Shown: in pieces, positions 7,189 through 56,016 of the stretch
Layout: each line of letters begins with the position of its first letter
Position numbering within the stretch: position 1 is the first letter of the stretch
Assembly: GCA_030390025.1 (NCBI GenBank)
Contig: CM059432.1
Coordinates: 71,364,001-71,428,000, forward strand
From: Squalus acanthias
Taxonomy: Eukaryota
DNA: 64,000 nt
Direction of reading: 5' to 3'
Program-made: the position numbers and the translations under genes
Notes under the pieces: generated by a model
Told to the model about the DNA's origin: nothing
Seen by the model: only the letters and a program-made list of their open reading frames with translations
Database searches by the model: none

Positions 7189-7439
7189 GGGCTGGATTTT
7201 GTCTTGGGGTCAGGTTGGGGTCGTGTTAGCCACATTTTGTGTTTCCCCCCCCCCCGACTCCAGATTAATGTGGATGAATGATGCAATTTTCACTTAATTG
7301 GGTAATTGAGTTCCAGCATGTGGGAACCCATGAACCAATTAGTGGTTTCAGTCTGAAAGTCGCCTCTGATGATGTCATCATTGCAGGTCAGAGACCGTCT
7401 GCCTGGTCTCAGAGACTGCCTGGCTTTTGGTGTGAGAGG

Positions 7440-7479
<40 letters not shown>

Positions 7480-7905
7480 CAATCCATAAGGCCAGGCAGT
7501 CTGTGAAGACAATGCAGCAGCATCAGAGGCCACTTTCACACACACAATACTACTACTCCCTTCATCACATCTCCGTTGTAATAGTGGACCTGCAGCTGAT
7601 AGTCAGCTATCCACTTGTGCTCCCACCAGGTTTCACTGGCGTGTTTCACATCAGGCGTACTTCACGTCAGAAAAGGGTTAAACTAGCTAAAACGTTTCAA
7701 AATGGCATTACAGAGCCAATTTAGAGCTTGTTAAGGGCTTTAATGGCCTCTCCCGCCTCTTGGAGGCGGGACGGAGTCGGGAACTCCGCGACCGGTTTTG
7801 TCAAAATTGCGTGGAGGCGGGATGGGGTTGGGACCCCTGACCCCACAACTTTAACCCCCCACACGCCTCCAAACCCGACTCCACAGGTCATTGAAAATCC
7901 AGCCC
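7189..7905. mobile_element. Harbinger MITE, family 2 (relative of 24642-27934)
   Basis: TIR GGGCTGGATTTT...AAAATCCAGCCC; flanks ATC/ATT; both ends align in reverse orientation to the ends of 24642-27934 and directly to 38414-39067. Confidence 0.9.
7443..7475. repeat. (GA)n microsatellite inside the MITE
   Basis: Uninterrupted GA run. Confidence 0.95.
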
Positions 7906-10955: not shown

Positions 10956-11728
10956 GGGGGAAAAATTCAGCTGCTTGCGCCTCCCGTTAGCGCCTTAAGA
11001 GGGCGCTAATGGGGCGTAAAGCAGCTAACGCCCGGGCGCAGCGCCGCCCACGCCTCCCGAAAAATTTAGTGGGAGGTTAGCGGCGGCGGCAGCCGGTAGC
11101 GCCCTGTGGCGCTGCGCCGCCGGCGATGACGTCATCGCCGTGCGCAGCACCCCGCTCGCGCCCCGGCCGTGAACTTCAGTCGCGCCCCCTGATTTACCGC
11201 CAGACGCGATGTCCGACGGGTTCAGGGAGGCGTACGTGCGGCCAGGGCGGCGATATTTAAAGGGGAGGTGGCAGGCGGCCATTTTTGTTGCTGGCCGCCT
11301 GCCAGCACCTGCCCCCGTTGCTGTCCCCGGCCCCCGTGAAGCCCCCCCACCGTGAAGTGCCGGCTGCGCTCCAAGAGCCCGGCACTTCTCTTGAGTGCCG
11401 GGCTCTTTTGCCGGCACTCCCGATCCCTGGGGGCCCAGCTGGGCCCCGGTTCGCGCTGCGCAGGGTCCCTCCCCTTTAAGAAGGGGAGGAAGGCCTGCAA
11501 TACCGCGGCGCGACGTGCCGCAGCGCGTGGCGCTGCGGCACGTAGCGGCAGGATATTCACTCGCAGCGCCCCAAGAGGGATGCGGGGTGCTTCCAGTGGC
11601 GCCCCGCTTCCCTCTTGGGGCGCAACCACTGAAGTTCTGGCGCGGGGCCGCTAATTTTTTCGGGGCGCTAAAAGTCGCGCCCCGGCGAGGTTAGCGCCCC
11701 AAATGGGGCGCGACTCAATTTTTACCCC
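10956..11728. mobile_element. 773-bp Harbinger MITE, family 1 (shares ends with 32507-36675)
   Basis: AAT TSD on both sides; TIR GGGGGAAAAATT...AATTTTTACCCC; the first ~85 bp nearly match the reverse complement of the right end of 32507-36675; CpG-rich. Confidence 0.95.
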
Positions 11729-31645: not shown

Positions 31646-32871
31646 TTAAAATCCCGAGCCTGCAATCTCTCTCTTGCAATCTTTCTTGTCTTTAGTTTAT
31701 CAATCCCATTATAGTCATTGCTCCTTTTAAAAAAAAATTAAGCTCCATATACATGAATTCTACATATTCTTTCTTCTCCTTACATTCCCACTGTATTGAA
31801 ATCTAAACTCACTGCACAACCTCCTACTCTTGCTCATTATTTTATAAGACCTTAAAATCATGGAACCCCTTAACTCCTTCAGTCTTTTCATCCCACTAAA
31901 TTCTTTAGGCTTTTAAAACTAAAGGTCAGTGTCGGCTAATCACTACTTACTGATTTATTTCATTTTCTCCTTTAATCTTTTCATCATTGATGGTATCCTG
32001 CACTACAGGTTTTGATGCTTCTGCAATTCTCAATTAAAAGAAAAATGCTGCTGGAATAAAGCAATTTTGCTTTCCTTCTTTTATGCTTTCTACCTTTACA
32101 AAATTGTTCATGTTAACTGATGACGCTGCTACTCATCATCATATTAGCAATTAGGCGCTGTGGATGTCTAAGTTAATAGATTTGAAAACTCAGAGCTCTT
32201 GTCTTTGTCTCGCTTGACAGGCATAAACTGGGTGGGCAGGCGAGGAAAATGAGGGCTGTAGCTATTCCTCCACCAAATGCTGTTTCTGCCGGAAGTGACA
32301 TCAGGCATATAGTGCATCCACCCAAATATGGACAGGCATATTATATTAAGATGCAAATGGCAGGATGACATCATGCAACAAATTTCCCAACAATTTCTGG
32401 CTGCAAGGAACACCAGTTCATTACTGGGTCCAGTGTTGCTAAGAGCCATGGGAAGAGGGGTTACATTTTAATAAGCCACTTTTGATTCGGCAAATTTAAA
32501 GATTTAGGGGGAAAAATTAGGTCGCGCCCCATTTGGGGCGCAAATATCGTCTGGACGCAAATATTAGCGCCTGGCGCTAATTATCGCCACTGACTGGAAA
32601 CTTCACTTTTACCGCCCGGGAGGTGAGTGGAGCGCTAAATCAGGCGCTGCACACCTGTCTTAAGGCGCAAAGGCCGAGCAGTGAGGCGCTAACTCAGAGC
32701 GCGAGCGCAGCGCAGGTGCTGCCAGTTAGCGAGGGAACACAGACACACTGGCGCCGGCCACTTCTTAAAGCGGGGGGGGGGGGGGGCCAACTTGCTCCCC
32801 AGCCACACCCTGCTCATTGCAGCCTTGAATCTCGGCCTGGAGAGACCTGTGAATCCATTTTGCTGCCAAGG

Positions 32872-34691
32872 ATGGAGAGGGTGAGAGAACGAGCTCATCG
32901 CTTCACCGAGCGGGCCTTGGATGCTCTGGTTGGCGCGGTGGAGCGCAGAAGATGTATACTCTTCCCTGAGAGTGGCAGGAGGCCTTTGCCACGCGAGTAC
33001 AGAAGAGTGTGGAGGGAGGTGGCTCAGAGCGTCTCCTCCAGGAGCATGGTGCCCAGGACCCATGTTCAATGCCGCAAAAAGTTCAACGACCTCACTCGGG
33101 TCGTCAGGGTGAGTGGCTTTTTCTCAATACCTCTCCATCCCTCTATCTCAACCTCACTCTATGGCCAGAGGGTCTTAAAACCCCAATGCACAACACTCAT
33201 CCAGCACCTATGGCCCTTTCATGAAACACACACACACATTCCACACTTTGCATAGAGTAAGGGCTATTCACCTATGGGAGGCACATCAGGCAAGACCATG
33301 GCTGCATACAGTAAGGGCTATTCACCTATGGGAGGCACATCAGGCAAGACCATGGCTGTATATTTACTCAGATGCTGTCCTTTTTCTTACAGGCCAAGCT
33401 GGCGCATAATCGGAGACAGCAGCAACGGACAGGAGGAGGGCAGCCTCAGCTGCAACCCCTCAGCGATCTTGAGGAACGCGTCCACAGGATTGTGGCAAGC
33501 CGGGTGATCGGTCCCGTCGCCACTGGAGACGCCGACCCCGTTCTGGACAGCAATGGTAAGGTCATCACCTTTTTGTCCTCTGTCCTTCCACTTGTCCCTC
33601 ACAACACCAGCCTTTGACACTTTCAATCCAACTTGCTAACTCGCTGCACTTATTCCTCCCTTACTGCCACCCTGTCCTCACGCTAAAGCCACTCTTGTAC
33701 CTCCCTGCTTTCAGATGGTGATTCACCAGCTGAGGAGACTGGCCCTGAAGCTGCCACTGGGAGTGAAGCTGCAGCCGAGGAGGAAGAGGAAGCCGGAGCA
33801 TCAGTGCCACCCTCTCCCGAGGAAGCCCATGCTCACACTGGGAACACGCCTTCCCTGGAGGGGAGCAGGGGGGAAGGGTCTGATGAGGGTGAAGCTCCAG
33901 GACCCAGCGGGCTGCAGCAACGCCATGGGGGTAGGGAAGAACGGGGGCCTTCTCCCCAGAGGGAGAGTATGCCAGAGACTCCTACTGCAATGGACGCAGA
34001 GGAGGAGCGGCTGATCGCAGAAATGAACACCCAGGCGGTGGGCATGCACACTGAGCTCATGGGTGCAGTGGGAAGGGTGCCCGAATGCATTGAGTCACTG
34101 GCAAGGAGTGTGGAGCACTTCGCTGTAGCACAGGCGGATGCCACACTAACGCTTAGTGCTGCAATTCAGTCACTGGCTGCCGTGATCCCATCTCTGACTG
34201 CTCTCATGCAGACTCAGATTGAGGCCACGCGAGCACAGACTGCTGCCAACCTCGATGGTTCGTTCACATGTCCCCGGGGCTCTCACCGCGCCGCAGCAGG
34301 CCAGCAATCTGTTCTCCAGCAGATTGCTCCGGATGCTGAAGTGCTGCCCCGTGGGAGTGCCAGTGTGTCGGGCGAGCAGGGAGTTGCTGTCCTCTCTCAC
34401 GATGACAGCATTCCTGCTGCCAACACTGTCACTTCTCCACTGCACTTGCCACCGCCTGTAGGACAGACTGCTGCCGCCCATGCAGAGTTGGTGCAGTCTG
34501 CAGCCGGGCCCTCCAGGCCCAGAACTGGTCGAGGCCGTCCTTCAGGGGCATCTGCAGTGTCAGGGTCTGACGATCAGCAGCCTTCCACCAGCCTTGCTGC
34601 AGCCACTGAGGTCCCATTACGGAGGAGCAGTAGGGTTAGAAGGGGGGAAGTGCGCAAGGGAAGGAGATCACCCTCGAAGGGCAAAAAGTAG
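32872..34691 (+). CDS. Harbinger Myb/SANT-like DNA-binding protein, join(32872-33108,33393-33555,33715-34691), 458 aa
   Basis: RFTERALDALV...W.EVA...RTHVQCRKKFNDL; introns GTGAGT..TTACAG (phase 0) and GTAAGG..TTTCAG (phase 1); spliced length 1377 nt with no internal stop; basic C-terminus. Confidence 0.9.
33249..33362. repeat. 54-bp tandem duplication in intron 1 of the Myb gene
   Basis: AGTAAGGGCTATTCACCTATGGGAGGCACATCAGGCAAGACCATGGCTG at 33256 and 33310. Confidence 0.95.
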
Positions 34692-35003
34692 GAGGTGTGA
34701 CAAAATGCTGGTCATTTTTTTATTAAAGGCCGAGGTTCATGGTCCAACTTTTGTTTAGTGTTTTGGACATTATCTCCAGGTTGTGAGAACCAGTTATGTT
34801 ATTGACTGTTTTTTTGTGTTTATTTCTATGAGTTTGTCATGAGGAATTGACACACACAGAGTTTGTAAAATAAATAAGTTTCTGTATTCAAAATATACAT
34901 GGTTGGTGTTTGGAATTATTGGTGCCTTGGCCGGCTTAGGGGTTGCGTGCTGGGTTCATTGATGTTGTTAGCAATGGCAGAAGCCATTTCCACAGCAGGG
35001 GCC

Positions 35004-36164
35004 CTAGAAGCGGCTTGCTATTAGCTGTTGACGGACGGCCCTTGCAGTTTCACCATTGTGGGCCGCCCTCCCGCCTTGGTGCTGCTGATGATCATCCTCC
35101 TCGTCCTCTTCCTCCTCTTCTTCCTCCTCCTCTGGTGGTGCTCCAAGGCCTGGTGGCATTGGCTGGGTCCTGACGATTGCCATGTTATGCAACATGCAGC
35201 ACACAACTACGAAGTTGGATACTCGCTCAGGCGAGTACTGCAGGGCTCCTCCAGAATGGTCGAGACAGCGGAACCGTTGCTTCAGCACACCAATTGTGCG
35301 CTCAATGATGTTCCTGGTAGCTTGATGGCTCTCATTGTACCGCAGCTCAGCAGGGGTGTTGGGCGTACGGAGCGGTGTCATCAGCCAGGTGCTCAATGGA
35401 TACCCCTTGTCCCCGAGAAGCCAACCAACTGGCTGATGCGGTGCCTCAAAAAGTTCTGCCACAGTAGTCTGGCGCAGGATAAAAGCATCGTGGCAGCTGC
35501 CAGGATAGTGGGCATTGACAGCGAGTATCAGCTGTCTGTGATCACAGACCAACTGAACATTCAAGGAATGGAACCCCTTTCTGTTCCGGAATTCCTCGGC
35601 ATTCTCATGTGGAGCACGCAAAGCCACATGCATGCAGTCAATGGCGCCCTGCACCATGGGGAAGCCCGCTATCCTCGCAAAGCCCAGAGCGCGGTCACGC
35701 TGCTTGTCTGGGGTCATGGGGAAAGAGATGAACTCTCGTCTCCTTCTGAAGAGGGCATTTATGACCTGCCGGATGCAGCAATGCACCGCGAACTGGGAGA
35801 TATTGGCGAGGTCCCCAGCAGCAGCTTGAAATGAGCCAGTAGCATAGAAGTTGAGAGCCACTGTGACCTTCACTGCCACCGACAGAGACGTCCTGGACCT
35901 CAGTTGAGGCTGCAGATCTGGCTGCAGCAGGTGGCAGAGCTCAGTGACCACCTCCTTGCTGAATCGCAGCCTTCGCAAACACAGCTCCTCAGACATATGA
36001 ATGTAGGAGAGCTGTTCACGATATACCCTGGGAGGGTAAGCTCTCCTGTACATACGCCTGTTGGCCCTCCTCCGTCTGGCCATCATTGCCACTCTCTCTC
36101 TGCGTCTCTGTGTCCTCCGATTCAGCTGGAGCAGGACGACGCCCCCAATCAGTGCAGCCCCCAT
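35004..36164 (-). CDS. HARBI1-like Harbinger DDE transposase, 386 aa from the first ATG
   Basis: Uninterrupted ORF; GAIDCMH (D), NRKGFHSLNVQ, PGSCHD, LLGDKGY (D), IIERTIG.LKQRFRCL (E), CCMLHN; acidic tail. Confidence 0.95.
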   Translation of the reverse strand: MGAALIGGVVLLQLNRRTQRRRERVAMMARRRRANRRMYRRAYPPRVYREQLSYIHMSEELCLRRLRFSKEVVTELCHLLQPDLQPQLRSRTSLSVAVKVTVALNFYATGSFQAAAGDLANISQFAVHCCIRQVINALFRRRREFISFPMTPDKQRDRALGFARIAGFPMVQGAIDCMHVALRAPHENAEEFRNRKGFHSLNVQLVCDHRQLILAVNAHYPGSCHDAFILRQTTVAELFEAPHQPVGWLLGDKGYPLSTWLMTPLRTPNTPAELRYNESHQATRNIIERTIGVLKQRFRCLDHSGGALQYSPERVSNFVVVCCMLHNMAIVRTQPMPPGLGAPPEEEEEEEEEDEEDDHQQHQGGRAAHNGETARAVRQQLIASRF

Positions 36165-37034
36165 AGTCTCTTTGCAAGCAAAGTAATGAAGGACAGCAAC
36201 CAAAGTACTAGCGAAGTTAGGATCAGTAGGCAAAACTACCTCACAAAGCGTTGAGTCAATGCAGAAGTCTCTCTTTCTCTCTCTCCGAATCTCTCTCTCT
36301 CTCTCAGAACGAGTGGTGCATAAATGTCAACCACAGAAAAAGACAGGAAGAGGCCCCCTTTAAATAGCGCCCCCCCCAGCCCCACAGCGATTGATAGCGT
36401 TCCAGTCTTCCGGTCGTTGGATGCGCCAGGCGGTAAGGCAGGGGGCGCCACTCAATTTCCGCTCCGGGGTGCCACAAGGGCGTTGCACCATGGAATGACG
36501 TCACAATCTGCGCGCGCAGGTGGTCGCAGCGGTAAAGTTTAGCGCCGCCACACAATGTCTAGTTAAGTTCCCGAGCGGCGCAAACATCGCTGCGCCCGGG
36601 CGTTAGCGGCTTTGCGCCCCATTAGCGCCCTCTTAAGGCGCTAACGGGAGGCGCAACCAACTGAATTTTTACCCCTTAAACTTTTGAGATTTTTTTTCTT
36701 ATTTTCGGCTGCCACTGCTGGCAACGTTATGTTGTGACAAGGTGCCACAGCAGTTTCCCTCCATCCACCTTAGGTGGGCTACCAGTGGTGCCATAAATGG
36801 CTCCAGCACTCACCCAAATTATTTTAATGACTCTGATCTTGCAAAATGGGTCAGGAGCAGTAGCACAGGCAAGGAGCGTTTGGAAATCTCAGCCAATTGA
36901 AGAGCTGCTGCCATTGCGACTGAAGAGGGATATCTGCCCCTATGCCTGCATATTATTTTGAATTGGACTTGTATATAAAGTACTTTTTGACTACTAAAAA
37001 GCTCCAATGTTAGCTGAAGGCTGCATAAGACATT

Positions 37035-38413: not shown

Positions 38414-39067
38414 GGGCTGGATTTTGATACTGGGGCAGGTTGGGGTCGTGTTATCCACTTTTCGTGTTATCCACCCGACTGCAATTGGATGTGGGAGATT
38501 GATGCGATTTTCACCTAACTGGGCAATTGAGTTCCAGCATGTGGGAACCCATGACCCAATTAGTGTTCTCAGTCTGAAAGTCGCCTCTGATGATGTCATC
38601 ATTGCTGCTGCATTGAAGGTCTGCAAAGACTGCCTGGCCTTCGCTGTGAGAGGACCTGGATGCAAAATGAGCAGCAGCAGCCCTAAGTCTGCTCCCAGAT
38701 ATTTTTGCACCACCACTCCCAGATATGTCTCCCATTCACCACCACTCCCAGATCAGCCAGCCAGCCAGCCAGCCAAATGTGCTCCCGTCAGGTTTCAATT
38801 TCGTGGTTCAGAACAGGCGTGCTTCACGTAGAAAAAGGGTTAAAATCACAAAGGCCTTTCAAAATGGCATTATAGAGGCAATTTAGTGCTTGTTAAGGGC
38901 CTTAACAGCCTATCCCGCCTCTTGGAGGCGGGACGGAGTCTGGACCAGCAGACACGATTTAATGAAAATTGCGTGGAGGCGGGCTTGTGCCCGCCCGCCA
39001 GTTTTCACAACTTTAACCCCCCACACGCCTCCAAACCAACCTCCACGGGTCAATGAAAATCCAGCCC
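38414..39067. mobile_element. Harbinger MITE, family 2
   Basis: TIR GGGCTGGATTTT...AAAATCCAGCCC; flanks ATA/ACA; retains MSSSSPKSAPR, the start of the Myb gene. Confidence 0.92.
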
Positions 39068-41015: not shown

Positions 41016-42166
41016 ATGGCTGAGCCTCAGCACAGGGAGAGAGCCGCAGATTCTCAGACACAGCACTTGAGGCACTGGTCATGGCCGTGGAGAGGAAGCG
41101 GGCTGCCCTCTTCCCACAGACTGGCAGGAAGCCCTTGCCACACGCATCTCGAAGGCTCTGGCAGGAGATAGCCGCCCATGTCACGGCCAGCACTGTGCTT
41201 CACAGGTCGGCCATCCAGTGCTGAAAGAAGTTTAATGATCACATGGTAGGCCGAGGTGAGTGAAGGCTTCAGCAAATGCCATATCCCACCATCTGCACCA
41301 CAAGCCTCACACACTGCTCAATGCACCACACCCCCATCACTCACCTACCAACAATCTCTACCTATCACTACTCAGACCTCACAATCATAGCTTCACTTCA
41401 CCCTCGCAACATTACCACTGCTGCAACCTTCACACCCACATCTCACACCTTGCACACACTGACAGCTATTCAACTATGGCAGGCACATCACCCAAACACA
41501 TTGCACCGCACTCACTCACACATTTCCCTTTCTCTTGCAGGCTTAGGTCGCGCATAACAGGAGGGAGCAGTGGCAGACAGGCAGGGGGCAGGCTGCCAGC
41601 CAGGACCTCAGCCAACTGGAGGAGTGAGTGCTGGAGATCATTGGGCAGCAGATCATGTAGGCCGTGGCAACCAGCGAAGTTGAAGCCCATGGGGACAACA
41701 ACGGTATGCTCATCCCTAATCCTTCTTCTCACATCCCACTACCCCCTCATCCCACAGTCTCATCTCAATGTCAAGCTGCTGATGCTGTATGCATGCATAT
41801 CTTGCTTCCCCCCACCCCTCACCATAACCTGACTCTTGTGCTTTCAGATAATTAATAACAATCACATGAGCAGCCTGACCCCGAGGCGATGCAGGAGAGC
41901 GAAGAGGGAGAAGAAGACGCAGCATCCCTGCTTCTCTCACTCACAGACACCAGCGCAGAATCTGGCACTGCATGTACTTTAGAGGCTAGTGTAGAAGCAG
42001 GATCTGCACAGGGTGAGGCACTGGGCACGAGTGGGCTGCAGCATGGCGAGGGGAAAGGGTAGCTCGGGGCCAGCTCCCCGGAGGGTGAGTTCGCGCGCGG
42101 GTTCTGCTGCACAGGACTCAGATGAAGACCTCGGTGGGGCAGGCTTCAGATGAGGAGTGCTGGGCA
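41016..42166 (+). pseudogene. Myb/SANT gene copy A (exons 1 and 2, start of exon 3), disrupted
   Basis: MAEPQHRERA..., QC*KKFND then GTGAGT; exon 2 after TTGCAG near 41541; stops and frameshifts. Confidence 0.82.
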
Positions 42167-43008
42167 TTTTTTTCTTTTATTCGTTCATGGGATGTGGGCG
42201 TCGCTGGCAAGGCCAGCATTTATTGCCCATCCCTAGTTGCCCTTGAGAAGGTGGTGGTGAGCCGCCTTCTTGAACCGCTGCAGTCCGTGTGGTGAAGGTA
42301 CTCCCACAGTGCTGTTAGGGAGGGAGTTCCAGGATTTTGACCCAGCGACGATGAAGGATCGGCAATATACTTCCAGGTTAGGATGGTGTGTGTCTTGGAG
42401 GGGAACTTGTAGGTGGTGGTGTTCCCATGTGCCTGCTGCCCTTGTCCTTCTAGGTGGTAGAGGTTGCGGGTTTGGGAGGTGCTGCCGAAGGAGCCTTGGT
42501 GAGTTGCTGCAGTGCATCTTGTAGATGGTACACACTGCAGCCACGGTACGCCGGTGGTGGAGGGAGTGAATGTTTAAGGGGTGGATGGGGCGCCAATCGA
42601 GTGGGCTGCTTTGTCTTGGATGGTGTCGAGCTTCTTGAGTGATGTTGGAGCTGCACTCATCCAAGCAAGTGGAGAGTATTCCATCACGCTCCTTACTTGT
42701 GCCTTGTAGATGGTGGAAAGGCTTTGGGGAGTCAGGAGGTGAGACACTCGCCGCAGAATACCTAGCCTCTGACCTGCACTTGTTGCCACAGTATTTATGT
42801 GGCTGGTCCAGTTAAGTTTCTGGTCAATGGTGACCCGCCCAGGATGTTGATGGTGGGGTATTCGGCGATGGTAATGCCATTGAATGTCAAGGGGAGGTGG
42901 TTAGACTCTCGCTTGTTGGAGATAGACATTGCCTGGAACTTCTGTGGTGCGAATGTTACCTGCCACTTATCAGCCCAAGCCTGAACATCATCCAGGTCTT
43001 GTTGCATG
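42167..43008 (-). mobile_element. LINE type B 3' portion
   Basis: MQQDLDDVQAWADKWQ, YKAQVRSVMEY; T-rich tail at 42167. Confidence 0.93.
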
Positions 43009-43089
43009 CCTTCTCAAGGGCAATTAGGGATGGCAATAAGTGCTGGCCTTGCCAGCGACGCCCACATCCCATAAACGAATAAAAAAAAA
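43009..43089 (+). mobile_element. Isolated LINE type B (or partner SINE) 3' tail with poly(A)
   Basis: Near reverse complement of 42168-42251. Confidence 0.88.
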
Positions 43090-44400
43090 CACTGGCCAAA
43101 GCACCACACCCCCAGTGCACACTGACTAACAATCTCTACCTACCAACATTCACACCCACATCTCACACCTTGCAGACAATGACAGCTATTCAACTATGGC
43201 AGGCACATCACCCAAACGCATTGTGCCACACTCACTCACACACTTTCCTTTCTCTTGGAGGCCAAGGTGGCTCACAACAGGAGGGAGCAGGAGCGCACAG
43301 GTGGGGGACAAGCCGACACCCAACCACTGTCTGCGCTGGAAAATAGAGTGCTGCAGATTATTGGGCACCAGGTGGTGGGCACCCTGGCCATCGGTGACGT
43401 TGACCCCCTTGGGGACAACAATGGTATGTTTATCCCGACTCCTTCTTCTCACATCCCACTACCCCCTCACCCCACAAGACTTTCGCACTTTCCAGCTAAT
43501 CATGCTGTATGCATGCACTTCTCCCTTCCTGCCCCCCTCCCCTCACCTTAACCTGACTCTTGTGCCTTTATGCTTTCAGATAATCAGCAAGCAGCTGAGC
43601 AGTCTGTCCCTGAGGGCACCGCAGAGAGTGAGGCGGGAGAAGAGGAGGAAGAAGAACACGCCGCATCACTACATGTCTCACCCGCAGGCACCAGCTCAGA
43701 TACTGGCACTATGCATTCTTTAGAGGCTAGTCTAGTAGCAGGATCTGCACAGGGTGAGGCACTGGGGATGAGTGGGCTGCAGCAAGGCCAGAGGGAAAGG
43801 GTAGCTCGGGGGCCAGCTCCCCGGGGTGGGGGGGGGAGTTCACGCGCGAGTTCTGCTGCACAGGACTCAGATGAGGACCTTGATGGGGAGGCGTTTAGAA
43901 AAAGGGTGATGGGCATGCACACAGAGATGATAGGTTCAATGGCAAGGGTGCCCGAGAGTCTGTCGGTAATGGTAAGGAGCGTGGAGGAGTCCACCTCCAA
44001 CATTGCACAAGGCTCTGCGCATACCATGGAGCCCATCATTTCCAGTCTGCAAAGGATGGTAGACTCCCAGAGCGACCGTGGCGACCCAGACCTAATGCTG
44101 CGTGTGATGGGCGAGCTGGCAGCTTCCATTGCAGCACAGGTGGAAGCGATGCAACGTCATAGTGCTGTAATGCAGTCTATGCTTGGTGCCATTCAATCTC
44201 AGACTGCTCTCATGTAGTCTCAGCTTGATGCCATGCAAGCTCTGACTGCTGCCATCGTGGCTGGGTCTACCACCATCGACCGGGGCTTTCACGGTGTCAC
44301 AGCAGGCCAGCAATCTGTGCTGCAACAGATTGCTAGGGATGCTGAGGTGCTGCCCTGGGAGAGAGGCAGTGGGTCAGTGGAGCAGGAACCTGCTGTCCTC
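43090..44400 (+). pseudogene. Myb/SANT gene copy B (part of intron 1, exons 2 and 3)
   Basis: AKVAHNRREQERTGGG; acidic exon 3 homologous to 33715-34400; stop at 44215-44217. Confidence 0.85.
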
Positions 44401-45259
44401 TGTGACCTCCCGGATGCAGTGATGGACAGCGAACTGCGAGATGTTAGCTATGTCTCCTGTTGCAGACTGGAAGAATCCGCTGGTGAAGAAATTGAGGGCG
44501 ACGGTGCCCTTGAAAGAGACGTGGTCATCCTGATCTGAGGCTGGAGGTCTGGTTGCAGGATGTGGCAGAGTTCTGTGACCACCCCCTTGGTGAAGCGGAG
44601 CCTTCTAATGCACTGCTCCTCGCTTAATTGGAGGTAGGAGAAGTGCTCTCGGAATACCCTCAGAGGGTAAGGCCTCCTGTTGAGAGCCTCGATGGCTCTC
44701 CTCCTCCTTCTGGCCACATGTTCCAGTCTATCTCGCTGCCTGCGCTCCCTCCGCAGTAGATCCTGGAGGGCGAGGTCGACTGCCAGTACAGCCCCCATTA
44801 ATGTAAGGAAGTGTAACACTTTGATATGTTGTGAGAATAAATGTAACTAATTTTTAGTAGCCACAACACTCCGGAGACTAAACAACCTTTAAATGACTGA
44901 ATTAAACTGTTGCACAATGTCAAACTAACAAGGAAGCAGTGAACCAGCACTAACCTGAGAGCTGCGACTCATTACTCATGATCCCTTTAAGTAGCGCCCC
45001 TGTAGCCGGCTACTGACTGCTTCACGCCTCCTCACCCTGTCGTTGTCGGGGCGAGGCGAGGCGCTAAGGCAGGGGGTGATAATCAATTTCGCAGATCAGG
45101 TGCCTGGTGCTGAAGTTCCCAGCACTAACTCGTATCGGCGGCTGCCGGATTTGGCGTGTGTCGCTGGATTCACCTCGCCGCGGCGCTATTGCCTCAGCGC
45201 CCCGTTAGCGCCCCCGCCAGGTGCTAACTGGAGGCGCTAAGGTACCGAATTTCTCCCCC
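44401..45259 (-). mobile_element. Transposase 5' fragment and terminus of nested Harbinger B
   Basis: RRPYPLRVFREHFSYLQLSEEQCIRRLRF; ends ...CGAATTTCTCCCCC at 45259. Confidence 0.85.
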
Positions 45260-45391
45260 ATAATTTTGTTTGGAATCTTTTGTGGTGGCTCTCATTTCAG
45301 CTTTGTGCCCAGGAGGACACTGTGATATTCCGTGACAGAGGGCTGGTATGATGGGGATGTGGTGAGCAACGGGGATCTGGGGTTTCATTTA

Positions 45392-46535
45392 TTAGAATCG
45401 GAGTCTGATGAGGCGTTCACAGATAGCCCATCTGGACAGGGGTTTTGCTGCCTGCCTCCTCCCTTCCTCCTCATCCTCTTCCTCTTCCTCTACCTCTTGC
45501 TCATCCTTCTTTTCCTCCTCCTTCTCCTCCTCTCCCTCGTCCTCCTCCTGAGGTGGTCCCGCAATCCCTGGTGGCAAGGGCTTCACCTTCATGATGGCCA
45601 AGTTGTGAAGCATGCAGCAGATCACAACAAAATAGGACACCCACTCCGCTGAGTACTGGAGGGCTCCTCCCGAGCAGTCAAGGCAGCGGAACTGTTGCTT
45701 CAGTAGCCCGATGGTCTGCTTGATGAGGTTCCTTGTGGCAGCATGGCTCTCATTATATGAGTGCTGGGCACGAGTGGTGGGGTTGTGGAGGGGAGTCATC
45801 AACCAGGTGCAGAGCGGATAGCCCTTGTCTCCAAGCAGCCACCCTCGAGTTTCATGTGGTGGCTGGAAGATTGCTGGCATCATGGCTGCTGCCAGGATAG
45901 TGGGCATTGACCATCAGGAATCGCTGGGCATGGTCACACACCAACTGCACATTAAGTGAGTGGTATCCTTTGAGGTTACGGAAGATCTCAGGATTGTTAT
46001 GCAGCATCTGCAAAGCCATGTGGGTGCAGTCAATGGCGCCCTGCGCCATGGGGAATCCCGCTATCCTGGCAAAGCCACATGCGCGCTTGTCCTGCTTCTC
46101 TCTGCTAAAAGAGAGGAAAAATTGTCCCTTCTGCTGGTGCAGAGTGTCTCAGTGACCTCTCGGATGCAGCGCTGGATGACGAATTGTGAGATTTTGCCTA
46201 TGTTTCCTGCTGCAGACTGGAAGGATCCGCTAGTGAAGAAATTGAGGGCCACGGTGACCTTGACTGCTCTCAGGCTGCAGGTTTGGTTACAGTAGGTGGC
46301 AGAGTTCTGTGACCACCTCCTTGGTGAAGCGAAGCCTCCTAATACACTGCTCCTCGCTTAAGTGGATATAAGAGAAGTGCTTTCAGAAGACCCTAGGTTG
46401 GTAAACCTCCTGTTGAGAGCCCTCCTGGCCCTCCTCTTCCTCCCTCTGCGTGAATCTTCTTGTCTTCTTCACTGCCTCCACTCCCTCTCCCGAAGATACT
46501 TGAGCGCGAGAGGGACTGTCATTAGAGCCCCCGTG
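45392..46535 (-). pseudogene. HARBI1-like transposase of the outer element, frameshifted
   Basis: GSFQSAAG, GAIDCTH, HSLNVQLVCD, LLGDKGYPL, CCMLHN over several frames; catalytic E position reads K (LIKQTIG). Confidence 0.92.
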
Positions 46536-48770: not shown

Positions 48771-50496
48771 TACGTTCCAGCACCTCTCTTTCTGGCTGGC
48801 TCCAGAGGCACAGCCACAGTCCACATGCAGCTGAGCAGAGCTAGGAGTGCCCCGCGCCCTCCGACGAGGACTATCCACTGCTGTCCCTGTCTCCACCATC
48901 TGCTGATGCTCACTTGTGAGCTGTGATCCACCAGGTGACAACACTAATCTATCTCGTGAATGACCCACCGAGGTGCGCGTCTCTGCGCTGGTGCTGGGTG
49001 CGCTCAATTCTGCTGACACTGCGCCCTCAGAGGTTGCAGCTTCCTCTGAGGAGCCTTCCGGCTCTTCCTCCTGGACAGTGGGGAGGGGGCTCTTGATGAT
49101 CCTGTGGGGGAGTAAAGGCATGAGTTAGACATGTGATATTAATGTAGCAGACACATCCCATTGTGCAGATGATCAGAACTCAATCTGTATGAACATCAAA
49201 TGCCATATCAGTCACTCATGCAATCTAAATGAGAGGGTTGCAAATCAATTCTGTCACCAGCTTGCTCTACTGTGCCCGTCTCTCCGTCCCCCACTTCCAG
49301 CTCCTCAGCACCTCCGATGATGTCGATTGCAGCCTCCTCAGCGGTGGTCAATTGTGTCAAGGAAGGTGGCCCTCCTCCTGTCCTGCCCCTCTCCCTCTTA
49401 TTGTGGGCTCTCATTTCCTGCAATGACGGACACAAGTGGAGTTTGAGCGAGAATGTTGGAGTGAGTGTAGAGCATCCATAGCAAAGATGCTTAGAGGGAG
49501 ACAAAGATGTAGTGAGATGCCAATACCAAGGGCCCTCCCTGTGTGTTGTTAGTTGTTGCCATTGCATAACAGTGATAGTGAGTGTGAGGGGTGCATATTA
49601 GAATGGTGGAGTGATTCTGTACATAGAGAGAGAGTGATGGTTAAGGGTGCAAGGGATGTAAGGGTAGGTTGGGATGTGCAGGAGTAGGTTGACAATGCAG
49701 AGTGCTGGTGATGAGAGGAGATGGGGAGCAGATTGAAGGTAAATGTGATGTTATATGTCCTGGCCAATATTTATCCCTCAACCAACATAACAAAAACACA
49801 TTATCTGGTCATTATCACAATGTTGTTTGTGGGAGCTTGCTGTGCGCAGATTAGCTGCTGCGTTTCCTACATTACAACAGTGACTACACTCCAAAAGTAC
49901 TTCATTGGCTGTAAAATGTTTTGAGACGTCCGGTGGTCGTGAAAGGCGCTATATAAATGCAATTATTTCTTTCTTTCTACTCACTTTTGCTGAGCGTAGC
50001 AGATCATTGAACCTTTTGCTGCACTAAACCCAGGTGCGTGAGCACAAAGACCTGGCGCTCACCTCCTCAGCAATTTGCAGCCAGGCTGCCTTGGTTTGCT
50101 GCGGAGGCTTCCTCCGTCCATTTGAGGGGAACAGCACCTCTTTCAGCCCTCTCACTCCCTCCACAAGAGCATGGAGGATGTCATCATCAAATCGTGGAGA
50201 GGCTTTTGATCTTGACCCACTCATCTCTCTATCTGCCATGCTGAAAAGCATTAGAGAATGAAGGAAAAATCACAAGGCTGCAATGGGCCCCTTAAATGCA
50301 GCTGAATGGACAATGTCAGCAGAGGCGAGCAGCAGACCCGAACCTACTGATTGGGCCGGGCAACGCACACGACGGGCTTACAAAACCCAGTTAAGGGAAA
50401 ATACTTAATACAGAGCGGATTAAACCGGCAGCGGGACCGGGACCCGCCGACCAGCAAACCCAACTCCAACCCGCCTCCACTCGGAAAATCGTGGCC
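48771..50496 (-). mobile_element. Myb-side half of a family-2-related Harbinger (exons ~50224-49985, 49417-49258, from ~49101)
   Basis: ASPRFDDDILHALVEG...W.QIAEEV; terminus AAAATCGTGGCC at 50496; collinear with ~26430-27660. Confidence 0.85.
49756..49977 (+). mobile_element. Deu-domain-type SINE 3' part inserted in Myb intron 1
   Basis: TGTCCTGGCCAATATTTATCCCTCAACC...GTGAAAGGCGCTATATAAATGCAA followed by a TTTC tail. Confidence 0.8.
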
Positions 50497-51364
50497 TTTG
50501 TGTCTGTCTTCAGGAAGAAGGCGCAAAAATCTTCCCAGAAATAGTGGAGAACCAAGGGTCTAGAGAGAATGAGGAATTGAAAGAAATTAGTATTAGTAAA
50601 AAAATAGTACTGAAGAAATTAATGGGACTGAAAGATGATAAATCCCCTGGACCTGATGGCCTACATCCTTGGGTTTTGAAAGAGGTGGCTATAGAGATAG
50701 TGGATGCATTGGTTGTCATGTTCCAAAATTCCACAGTTTCTAGAACGGTTCCTGCGGATTGGAAGGTAGCAAATGTAACCCCACTATTTAAGAAAGGAGG
50801 GAGAGAGAAAATGAGGAACTACAAACCAGTTAGCCTGACATCAGTAGTAGCAAAATGCTAGAATCTATTATTAAGGACGTGGTAACAGGGCGCTTAGAAA
50901 ATAATAATAGGATTGGGCAGAGTCAACACGGATTTATGAAAGGGATTTCGTGTTTGACAAATCTGTTAGAGTTTTTGAGGTTGTAACTAGCAGAATAGAT
51001 AAGGGGGAACCAGTGGATGTGGTGTGTTTGGATTTTCAGAAGGCATTCGATAAGGTGCCACACAAGAGGTTATTAAATAAAATTAGGGCTCATGGGATTG
51101 GGGGTAATATACTAGCATGGATTGAGGATTGGTTAACGGACAGAAAACAGAGAGTAGGAATAAATGGGTCATTTTCAGGTTGGCAGGCTGTAATTAGTGA
51201 GGTACCGTAAGGATCAGTGCTTGGACCTCAGCTATTCACAATCTACATCAATGATTTGGATGAGGGGACCAAATGTATTATATCCAAGTTTGCTGATGAT
51301 ACAAAGCCGGGTGGGAATGTAAGTTATGAGGAGGTTCCAAGGAAGCTTCAAGGGGATATAGACA

Positions 51365-55372: not shown

Positions 55373-56016
55373 GGGGGAAAAATTCGGTTGCTTTGCGCGT
55401 CTCGTTATGCCTGGGCGTGGCGCCGCTAACGCCTCCTGCGAAATTTTGCGGGAGGTTAGCGGCAGCGGTAGCCAGTAGTGCCCCACGGTGCTGCGCCTCC
55501 GGCGATGACATCATCGCCGTGTGCTGCGCCCCGCTTGCGTTCCGGCCGCAAAATTCGCTTGCACCCCTGACCTACCGCCGGATGCTATGTCCGACAGGGT
55601 CAGAGTGCCTTGTTTGCGGCCGGGGCAGCGATAATTAAAGGGCAGGTGCCGGGCGTCCATTTTTTTTGGGCTGTCTGCCAGGACCTGCCCCTTCTCGCCT
55701 CCTCCTGCGGGGTGCCGGCCGCGATCGGTCAGCCCGGCACTCCTCTTGAGTTCCGGGCTCTCTTGCCAGCAGGGCCCCGGTGTGCGCTGTGCTAGACCCC
55801 TCCCCTTTAATCAGTGGAGGGAGGCCTGTAGCGCTGCGATATTCAATGGGAGCGCCCCAAGAGGGAGGAGGAACGCTTCCAGTAGCGCCCTGCCTCCTGC
55901 TTGGGGCACTACCATTCAATTTTGGGCATGTGGGCGCTAACTTTTTCGGGGCACTAAAAGTAGCGCCTTGGCGAAGTTAGCGCCCCAAAGGGGGTGCAAC
56001 CCAATTTCCCCCCCCC
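55373..56016. mobile_element. Harbinger MITE, family 1 (second complete copy)
   Basis: AAG flanks; TIR GGGGGAAAAATT...AATTTCCCCC; collinear with 10956-11728. Confidence 0.9.

Follow-up and report, generated by a model that had tools for sequence, protein, structure and literature searches.

Harbinger and mPing transposons need two proteins, the Myb-like one of which binds to subterminal motifs and brings about nuclear import of the transposase; their excision is precise (PMC2836001, PMC9710019, PMC9392472). In the literature surveyed, the only vertebrate Harbinger shown to move is one that was rebuilt from its consensus. Here we describe a full-length PIF/Harbinger element of 4,169 bp with two convergent genes, which occupies positions 32507..36675 of a stretch of 64,000 nucleotides from Squalus acanthias (assembly GCA_030390025.1, contig CM059432.1, positions 71,364,001 to 71,428,000), hereafter called the window. 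We are fairly confident that it is one copy of a two-gene family thousands strong, which inserted into a palindromic target, 3 bp of which became duplicated (the target-site duplication, TSD), and that the burst has ended and the copies are decaying neutrally.

The zebrafish elements Harbinger3_DR and Harbinger3N_DR resemble this family in pairing a DDE transposase with a Myb-like gene, in their 3-bp TSD and in their repeated subterminal motifs (PMC3016246, PMC2836001, PMC9710019, PMC9392472), and their target flanks, AAACAC...GTCTTT, are nearly the same. They differ in that the target centre is A/T-rich (WWW) in our family and in that the zebrafish system was rebuilt from a consensus, whereas about a quarter of our copies keep both frames. 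Ping, Pong and mPing of rice (PMC2836001, PMC4561436) likewise form a two-gene system with 3-bp TSDs, miniature inverted-repeat partners and an extended target preference; mPing, however, is demonstrably active, duplicates TTA or TAA and has a 9-bp preference, in contrast to the 25 trinucleotides and the preference over 15-19 bp found here. Harbinger-Snek of sea kraits (PMC8437027) shares an explosive expansion, hundreds of intact copies, RNA reads and short partners, as well as the scarcity of near-identical copies and a slowed expansion; it fills 8-12% of its host genome after horizontal transfer, whereas our family covers, by extrapolation, about 0.4% and lies within a shark/ray clade. Its 269 intact copies in Laticauda colubrina are also a counter-example to the generalization, made in an initial annotation of the window, that vertebrate copies are usually defective. 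Finally, the domesticated Harbinger genes HARBI1, NAIF1 and MSANTD1-4 (PMC9392472) belong to the same two protein families, and databases label relatives 'putative nuclease HARBI1'; these are single-copy host genes without terminal inverted repeats (TIRs), whereas we are dealing with a multi-copy element in neutral decay.

A survey from 2022 found no Harbinger in elephant shark and a genome cover of 0.002-0.14% in teleosts, and urged that other species be checked (PMC9179366), while Harbingers are named in the repeat tables of whale shark and grey reef shark (PMC8455134, PMC12498223). Our literature search found no description of an intact elasmobranch Harbinger family, although Repbase, Dfam or supplements may name one. 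Harbingers are thus barely described in cartilaginous fish, and here is one family with thousands of well-preserved copies. Its thousands of insertions provide a natural dataset on a long target palindrome shared with zebrafish Harbinger3_DR and on LINE (long interspersed nuclear element) sequences as hotspots. Moreover, since the vertebrate precedent was rebuilt from a consensus and since no solved structure was matched by sequence, native intact pairs are direct assay material. The slow clock of sharks counsels caution in general, since elements that are 99% identical and have open frames are not necessarily active at present.

The element, its copies and its two genes

The hallmarks of PIF/Harbinger elements that could be tested are all present, namely a PF13359-type DDE transposase, a separate Myb/SANT gene, TIRs, a 3-bp TSD, an extended palindromic target (15 bp in vertebrates) and Tourist-like non-autonomous partners. 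The TIRs lose register after 12 positions, 11 of which agree, and are therefore short and imperfect; TIRs of the superfamily usually measure 25-50 bp (PMC9179366). GCGC[CT] motifs number 7 in the first 300 bp and 7 in the last 300 bp, as opposed to 4 in the 3,569-bp interior, and the subterminal GCGC-core motifs are likely, if still putative, binding sites of the Myb protein. Membership in the Harbinger-like ISL2EU group, which is defined by a second gene encoding a YqaJ exonuclease (PMC9179366), was rejected because the second gene is of Myb/SANT type and the domain search gave no YqaJ match. The structural reading of the initial annotation has thus held up: the boundaries, the TTA duplication on both sides and the matching, albeit short, TIRs are as it gave them, the transposase frame of 386 aa is uninterrupted with D, D and E in place, and the Myb-like exons, joined through two GT-AG introns, encode 458 aa without a stop. 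It was also right that CpGs are kept at the element ends (observed/expected 0.75 and 0.94, against 0.31-0.36 in the flanks), yet CpG decay is evident among the copies, where 26% of the minor-allele events in 30 copies are CpG transitions although only about 9% of sites are CpG bases; this over-representation indicates that the copies are decaying.

In the 3.71-Gb assembly, a similarity search that skips very common words and scores the best 34-40 candidates returned 6,393 candidates, and the best 34 of these, the window copy included, were all full length at 98-100% identity, the best sibling of the window copy being 98.9% identical. An exact 30-mer from the transposase core has 4,127 matches genome-wide (control, 0). 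Since the best-34 sample is skewed towards the best matches, a second sample was drawn by position, comprising 80 of the first 82 places of this 30-mer on contig C1 (the two left out, L010 and L011, were already in the set, and one of them has both frames open). Of these 80 copies, 76 retain both ends and 67 are full length; the transposase frame is open in 39, the spliced Myb frame in 38 and both in 21 (95% interval 17-37%), as compared with both in 25 of the 30 best matches. By extrapolation, full-length copies would number about 3,500 genome-wide, or about 0.4% of the assembly, and copies in which both frames are open about 1,100, on the understanding that an exact-match 30-mer filter favours younger copies. 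With about a quarter of sampled copies intact in both genes, the special status initially accorded to the window copy is not borne out.

Shorter relatives accompany the long copies. The first 30 bases of the element have 2,302 matches in the genome, and the first 30 places comprised 8 long copies, 19 members of a non-autonomous family of about 893 bp (one of them 734 bp) and 3 of a family of about 740 bp, so that 22 of the 30 were elements of 726-898 bp with both ends. Sequencing data of seven coded organisms contain 58-66% of the sampled element words, and of 25 variants tested from runs X1, X2 and X13, 21 also occur among the copies of this genome while 4 do not, which fits a family common to related species with lineage-specific subfamilies. 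Runs X9-X12, from metagenomes and organism C, contain 5-7% of the words and were left out of the analysis.

Among 106 aligned copies, D176 and D252 of the transposase are present in 106 of 106 and E288 in 105; we take the three residues to be the catalytic triad. The window copy deviates at two conserved positions. T135I is private to it: 105 of the 106 copies, and 26 of 30 homologues, have threonine there. T178M, located two residues past the first catalytic aspartate D176, is shared with few (M in 3 and T in 103 of 106 copies), with M also found in 8 of 30 homologues. The same copy carries R96Q in its Myb protein. By comparison, 6 of the 21 both-open copies show no change at any of 88 conserved transposase positions, so that the window copy is not the best candidate for function. 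The predicted transposase structure is a confident fold (predicted local distance difference test, pLDDT, 85.6), with which Foldseek found weak matches to DDE transposases and integrases (best E=0.017) and none at E<=0.001, and a sequence search of the PDB returned no match to the element's protein.

Sharks and rays are the source of nearly all of the 120 homologues listed, of which the closest is 71% identical, and no non-elasmobranch protein among the matches listed exceeds about 56%. In a tree of 35 homologues and the query, the transposase falls inside a clade of 10 shark/ray rows with support 99/99. The same tree contains clades whose branches are short although their members come from distant sharks and rays (P0020/P0022/P0056, P0039/P0041, P0011/P0013, P0004/P0005 and P0006/P0012/P0014/P0015/P0017/P0019); judging by branch length, these Harbinger transposase-like proteins are candidate domesticated genes, and one may be the true HARBI1.

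Exon 3 of the Myb-like gene has no Pfam match and returned nothing in a homologue search. At intron 1 of this gene, GT is kept in 105 and AG in 106 of the 106 copies, no genomic copy out of 106 lacks either intron, and homologues P0008 and P0121 span the junction 33108/33393 without a gap in the alignment. An exact skip of intron 2 with GT..AG ends, and thus the 33555/33715 joint that the initial annotation had asked for in RNA data, is present at a depth of 73 in the contigs of run X1 and of 211 in those of run X2. The two runs derive from organisms A and B and from two studies, and their RNA status is a tool's guess; in the contigs of run X13 the skip was not seen. These spliced transcripts are transcripts of the family and are not tied to the window copy. 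Among copies the length of intron 1, which contains a 54-nt tandem repeat (33249-33356), spans 230 to 608 bp.

Target sites and their duplications

Equal 3-bp TSDs flank 88 of the 106 long copies and 25 of the 31 short ones. Alignment of 87 insertion sites yields the palindrome T-W-A-R-A-S-W-C-[WWW]-G-W-S-T-Y-T-W-A, spanning 15-19 bp and with an information content that reaches 1.2 bits at -5 and +5, around a variable centre (25 trinucleotides in 87 sites, with CWG in only 3). Zebrafish Harbinger3_DR inserts into AAACACCWGGTCTTT (PMC3016246), and the 78 sites that lie outside the main hotspot agree with it at a mean of 7.65 of its 12 flank bases, as opposed to 3.43 +/- 1.53 in flanking DNA; half of the sites, against 0.8% of the background, match at 8 or more.

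That hotspot is a single base near the start of open reading frame 2 (ORF2) of a LINE with endonuclease and reverse transcriptase domains, where 10 of the 106 copies reside, in both orientations. Of five other loci of this LINE, three are empty with a single AAA (L208, L210 and L211), one holds another copy and one has a deletion that starts at that base. Across the genome, 7,936 empty sites were counted, as opposed to 729 and 691 junctions with ends of this and related Harbingers, which amounts to an occupancy of about 8%. A composite element made of LINE plus Harbinger was rejected, since the hotspot insertions lie in both orientations and are 0.9-2.5% apart. Twelve of the 106 copies are situated within or next to (TATGACTC)n repeats; we take these repeats to be CR1 3' tails. 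LINEs thus offer target sites by the thousands, near the start of ORF2 and in the 8-mer 3' tail, and thereby become hotspots. Several observations made at these sites deserve mention. The hotspot, seen at the L012 junction, holds about 700 insertions in both orientations that belong to several Harbinger families; at L010/L131 (G000:C1:23878771-23883870), the LINE hotspot carries a stack in which a full-length copy is joined by an 893-bp partner and by a duplicated end, together with a flank duplication of about 30 bp; and at L209:1500, in one case, a LINE copy is deleted from the exact hotspot base to its apparent 3' region, which is possibly the scar of an imprecise excision. An older relative of the hotspot LINE lies in the window itself (50496-50848).

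The flanking triplets are unequal in 24 of 137 copies, of which 18 belong to the 106 long and 6 to the 31 short ones, and 10 of the 24 differ at two bases; decay at 1% would yield 8 overall and 0.16 at two bases. The cases include L112, L136, L004, L131 and 20 other loci. In L004 and L131 the inequality arose from rearrangement of the flanks. L112 has contiguous LINE flanks, and its left triplet reads TCA in place of the AGA of the site; in no case among the 18 mismatched long copies were contiguous flanks confirmed by a retrieved empty site. By hand count, LINE-foreign triplets occur at 8 of 200 listed hotspot junctions and at 0 of 100 empty sites (p=0.056), or at 13 of 200 and 2 of 100 if an AAT variant is included (p=0.16). 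The idea that they are confined to the Myb-side end was dropped, as they occur at about 4 of 75 left-end junctions that are certain and at 4-5 of about 125 other junctions (hand count). The model for mPing proposes staggered cuts through the TSD (PMC4561436), from which we infer that an excised element would carry donor triplets with it. Carry-over of the donor overhang could perceivably explain the unequal TSDs, although we would give this explanation somewhat less than an even chance; alternatively, they would be the product of ectopic recombination between copies.

By analogy with Harbinger3_DR and mPing, transposition of this family might have proceeded as follows. The Myb protein would bind the repeated subterminal GCGC-core motifs, carry the transposase into the nucleus and place it on the short TIRs. 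The transposase would then cut the TSDs with a stagger of 3 nt, the donor site would reseal precisely, and the excised element would insert at sites of the above consensus. Several subfamilies and the non-autonomous partners of about 893 and 740 bp would have spread together. That some both-open copies still encode a working pair, which integrates at a palindrome of 15-19 bp conserved between shark and zebrafish and carries over the 3-nt donor overhang, is a tentative and rather doubtful proposal; both-open copies without a change at a conserved transposase position would number about 300 genome-wide, as extrapolated from 6 of 80. If true, it would provide an unreconstructed vertebrate Harbinger and a piggyBac-like joining step for Harbingers.

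Age, selection and competing explanations

Several subfamilies are resolved in a tree of the 106 copies, at distances of up to about 10% from the window copy. The median terminal branch measures 0.68% (0.47% without CpG columns), and the private divergence of the window copy is 0.51% (0.27% without CpG). At the mutation rate of the epaulette shark, 7e-10 per base per generation with an interval of 1.4-14.1e-10 (PMC10587355), 0.27% corresponds to 3.9 million generations (1.9-19), and at an assumed 1e-8 to 270,000; a per-year neutral rate for sharks was not found in our literature search. The ladder-like placement of L077, L096, L044, L080, L083, L058 and L099 between two subfamilies suggests that these seven are mosaic (recombinant) copies.

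The initial annotation proposed a search for near-identical copies in the source genome, and the only such pair among the 106 is L046/L047, 0.07% apart, which had to be rejected as independent twins because its members share their flanks at 98.5-99.5% and lie 32 kb apart, and thus represent a local duplication. With a member of the youngest-looking subfamily (L068) as query, the nearest pair of 26 half-elements among the best matches differs by 0.27%, and all differ by at least 0.23% from the subfamily majority; with the near-majority short element L137, the nearest pair of 31 elements among the best matches differs by 0.34%. Hence, in a sample of about 3% of copies, near-identical independent copies were found with neither the window copy nor L068 nor L137 as query, and 0 twins in 104 bounds the near-identical fraction only to about 3.5%. 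At the window locus, the assembly yielded no second haplotype of the flank, and the run records contain no empty-site joint, the flanks being short and no record crossing them.

Ratios of nonsynonymous to synonymous change (pN/pS) were calculated leaving out six rows with large deletions, outlying positions or a duplicate (L034, L045, L047, L085, L094 and L100). Private changes give 0.98 for the transposase (20 stops) and 1.25 for the Myb protein (14 stops), whereas changes shared by at least 5 copies give 0.41 for the transposase (core 0.26), 0.36 for Myb residues 1-110 and 1.30 for the rest of Myb; shared and private changes differ with Fisher p values of 2e-4 (transposase), 7e-6 (core) and 7e-4 (Myb residues 1-110). 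Neutral private and purified shared changes together imply that the source elements needed both functions and that inserted copies are not maintained. Frames are still open because little time has passed in terms of substitutions, and not because the host maintains them.

How firmly these data place the family's activity in the past has to be judged against the possibility that it still transposes today, driven by some of about 1,000 both-open copies and possibly including the one in the window. This would agree with the 21 of 80 copies open in both frames, 6 of which are unchanged at the 88 conserved positions, with the conserved element ends and with spliced Myb transcripts in two probable RNA runs from two studies. 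It would not predict the lack of an independent near-identical pair among 106 long copies, 26 halves of subfamily B and 31 short copies, nor CpG decay in copies, and against the window copy itself stand T135I, T178M and a best sibling at only 98.9%; we therefore regard ongoing transposition as quite unlikely. The initial description of the element as recently active and possibly mobile accordingly survives as far as an intact element of a young multi-copy family is concerned, and not with regard to mobility. Several points do weigh against a burst that has ended. The sample comprised about 130 of the more than 4,000 long copies, so that a small, young and active sublineage could be missed; dating is rough because the mutation rate comes from another species and has a tenfold interval; the unequal TSDs in 24 of 137 copies are unexplained by neutral decay; and family transcripts appear to exist. 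As to splicing itself, the joint 33108/33393 across intron 1, the other junction proposed for a check in RNA data, is absent from the run contigs examined, and X19, a raw polyA run from organism I of which 12% was read, has no reads on either gene, its 8 reads being partial matches to a CT microsatellite only.

Horizontal transfer into the lineage shortly before the burst would explain both the selection on subfamily-defining changes and the presence in several organisms. For class 2 elements, one expects neutral evolution inside a genome and purifying selection across transfers (PMC12400950), and the shared changes are under purifying selection; seven organisms contain 58-66% of the sampled words, and the sea kraits provide a precedent (PMC8437027). 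However, the transposase lies inside a shark/ray clade (99/99) with no non-elasmobranch protein above about 56% among the matches listed, older related families fill the same window, and the sharing of 21 of 25 variants, with 4 absent, is as expected for descent in close relatives with subfamily turnover, so that such a transfer seems improbable to us. A domesticated host pair like HARBI1 and NAIF1 might likewise be expected to have two open frames and spliced introns, and shark genomes do seem to hold domesticated Harbinger genes. For the window copy this was rejected, and we give it practically no credence, given the 4,127 genomic matches, the private pN/pS values around 1 and the retention of TIRs and TSD; a single orthologous copy, which the initial annotation had named as the sign of domestication, contrasts with thousands of dispersed copies with TSDs of their own. 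A burst that has likely ended, followed by neutral decay, thus remains our preferred interpretation.

Feature coordinates and neighbouring elements

Table 1. Coordinates, in window positions, of the PIF/Harbinger element and its parts, with the basis of each assignment
Feature	Position	Strand	Basis
PIF/Harbinger element, full length	32507..36675	.	same ends in 30/30 best copies and 76/80 positional copies
Left half of extended palindromic target, AAAGAT	32498..32503	+	window site fits Harbinger3_DR consensus at 8/12 flank bases
Left TSD, TTA	32504..32506	+	sequence inspection
Left TIR, 12 bp, GGGGGAAAAATT	32507..32518	+	11/12 match to right TIR; conserved across 106 copies
Left subterminal cluster, GCGC-core motifs (TTAGCGC/GCGCTAA type)	32524..32756	.	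motif count
Myb-like gene exon 1, Myb/SANT trihelix domain	32872..33108	+	PF13873 E=1.4e-9
Intron 1, GT-AG, with 54-nt tandem repeat of variable copy number	33109..33392	+	splice-site conservation
Myb-like gene exon 2	33393..33555	+	exon joining
Intron 2, GT-AG, 159 bp	33556..33714	+	skipped in contigs of runs X1, X2
Myb-like gene exon 3: acidic linker, helical region, basic C-terminus	33715..34691	+	exon joining; no Pfam match
DDE transposase gene, 386 aa	36164-35004	-	PF13359 (DDE_Tnp_4) E=1.7e-39
Codons of D176; D252; E288	35637-35639; 35409-35411; 35301-35303	-	alignment of copies
Right subterminal cluster, same GCGC-core motifs	36423..36654	.	motif count
Right TIR, 12 bp, GGGGTAAAAATT (reverse complement)	36664..36675	-	11/12 match; conserved across 106 copies
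Right TSD, TTA	36676..36678	+	sequence inspection
Right half of extended target, AACTTT	36679..36684	+	palindrome comparison

The six other transposase-like regions of the window are fragments or contain stops or frameshifts, as initially claimed for its other Harbingers, and their longest open frame measures 173 aa. At 41048-46436 lies an older, nested and broken relative with both genes, 66-75% identical at the DNA level and split by further insertions. A non-autonomous Harbinger of about 770 bp with an AAT duplication is found on the minus strand at 10956-11728, and its ends are related, at 94% in the last 88 bp, to those of the 4,169-bp family. At 7189-7905, 38414-39067 and 55374-56013 there are additional short elements, the ends of which, GGG..AATT / GGGCTGGATTT, resemble those of Harbingers.

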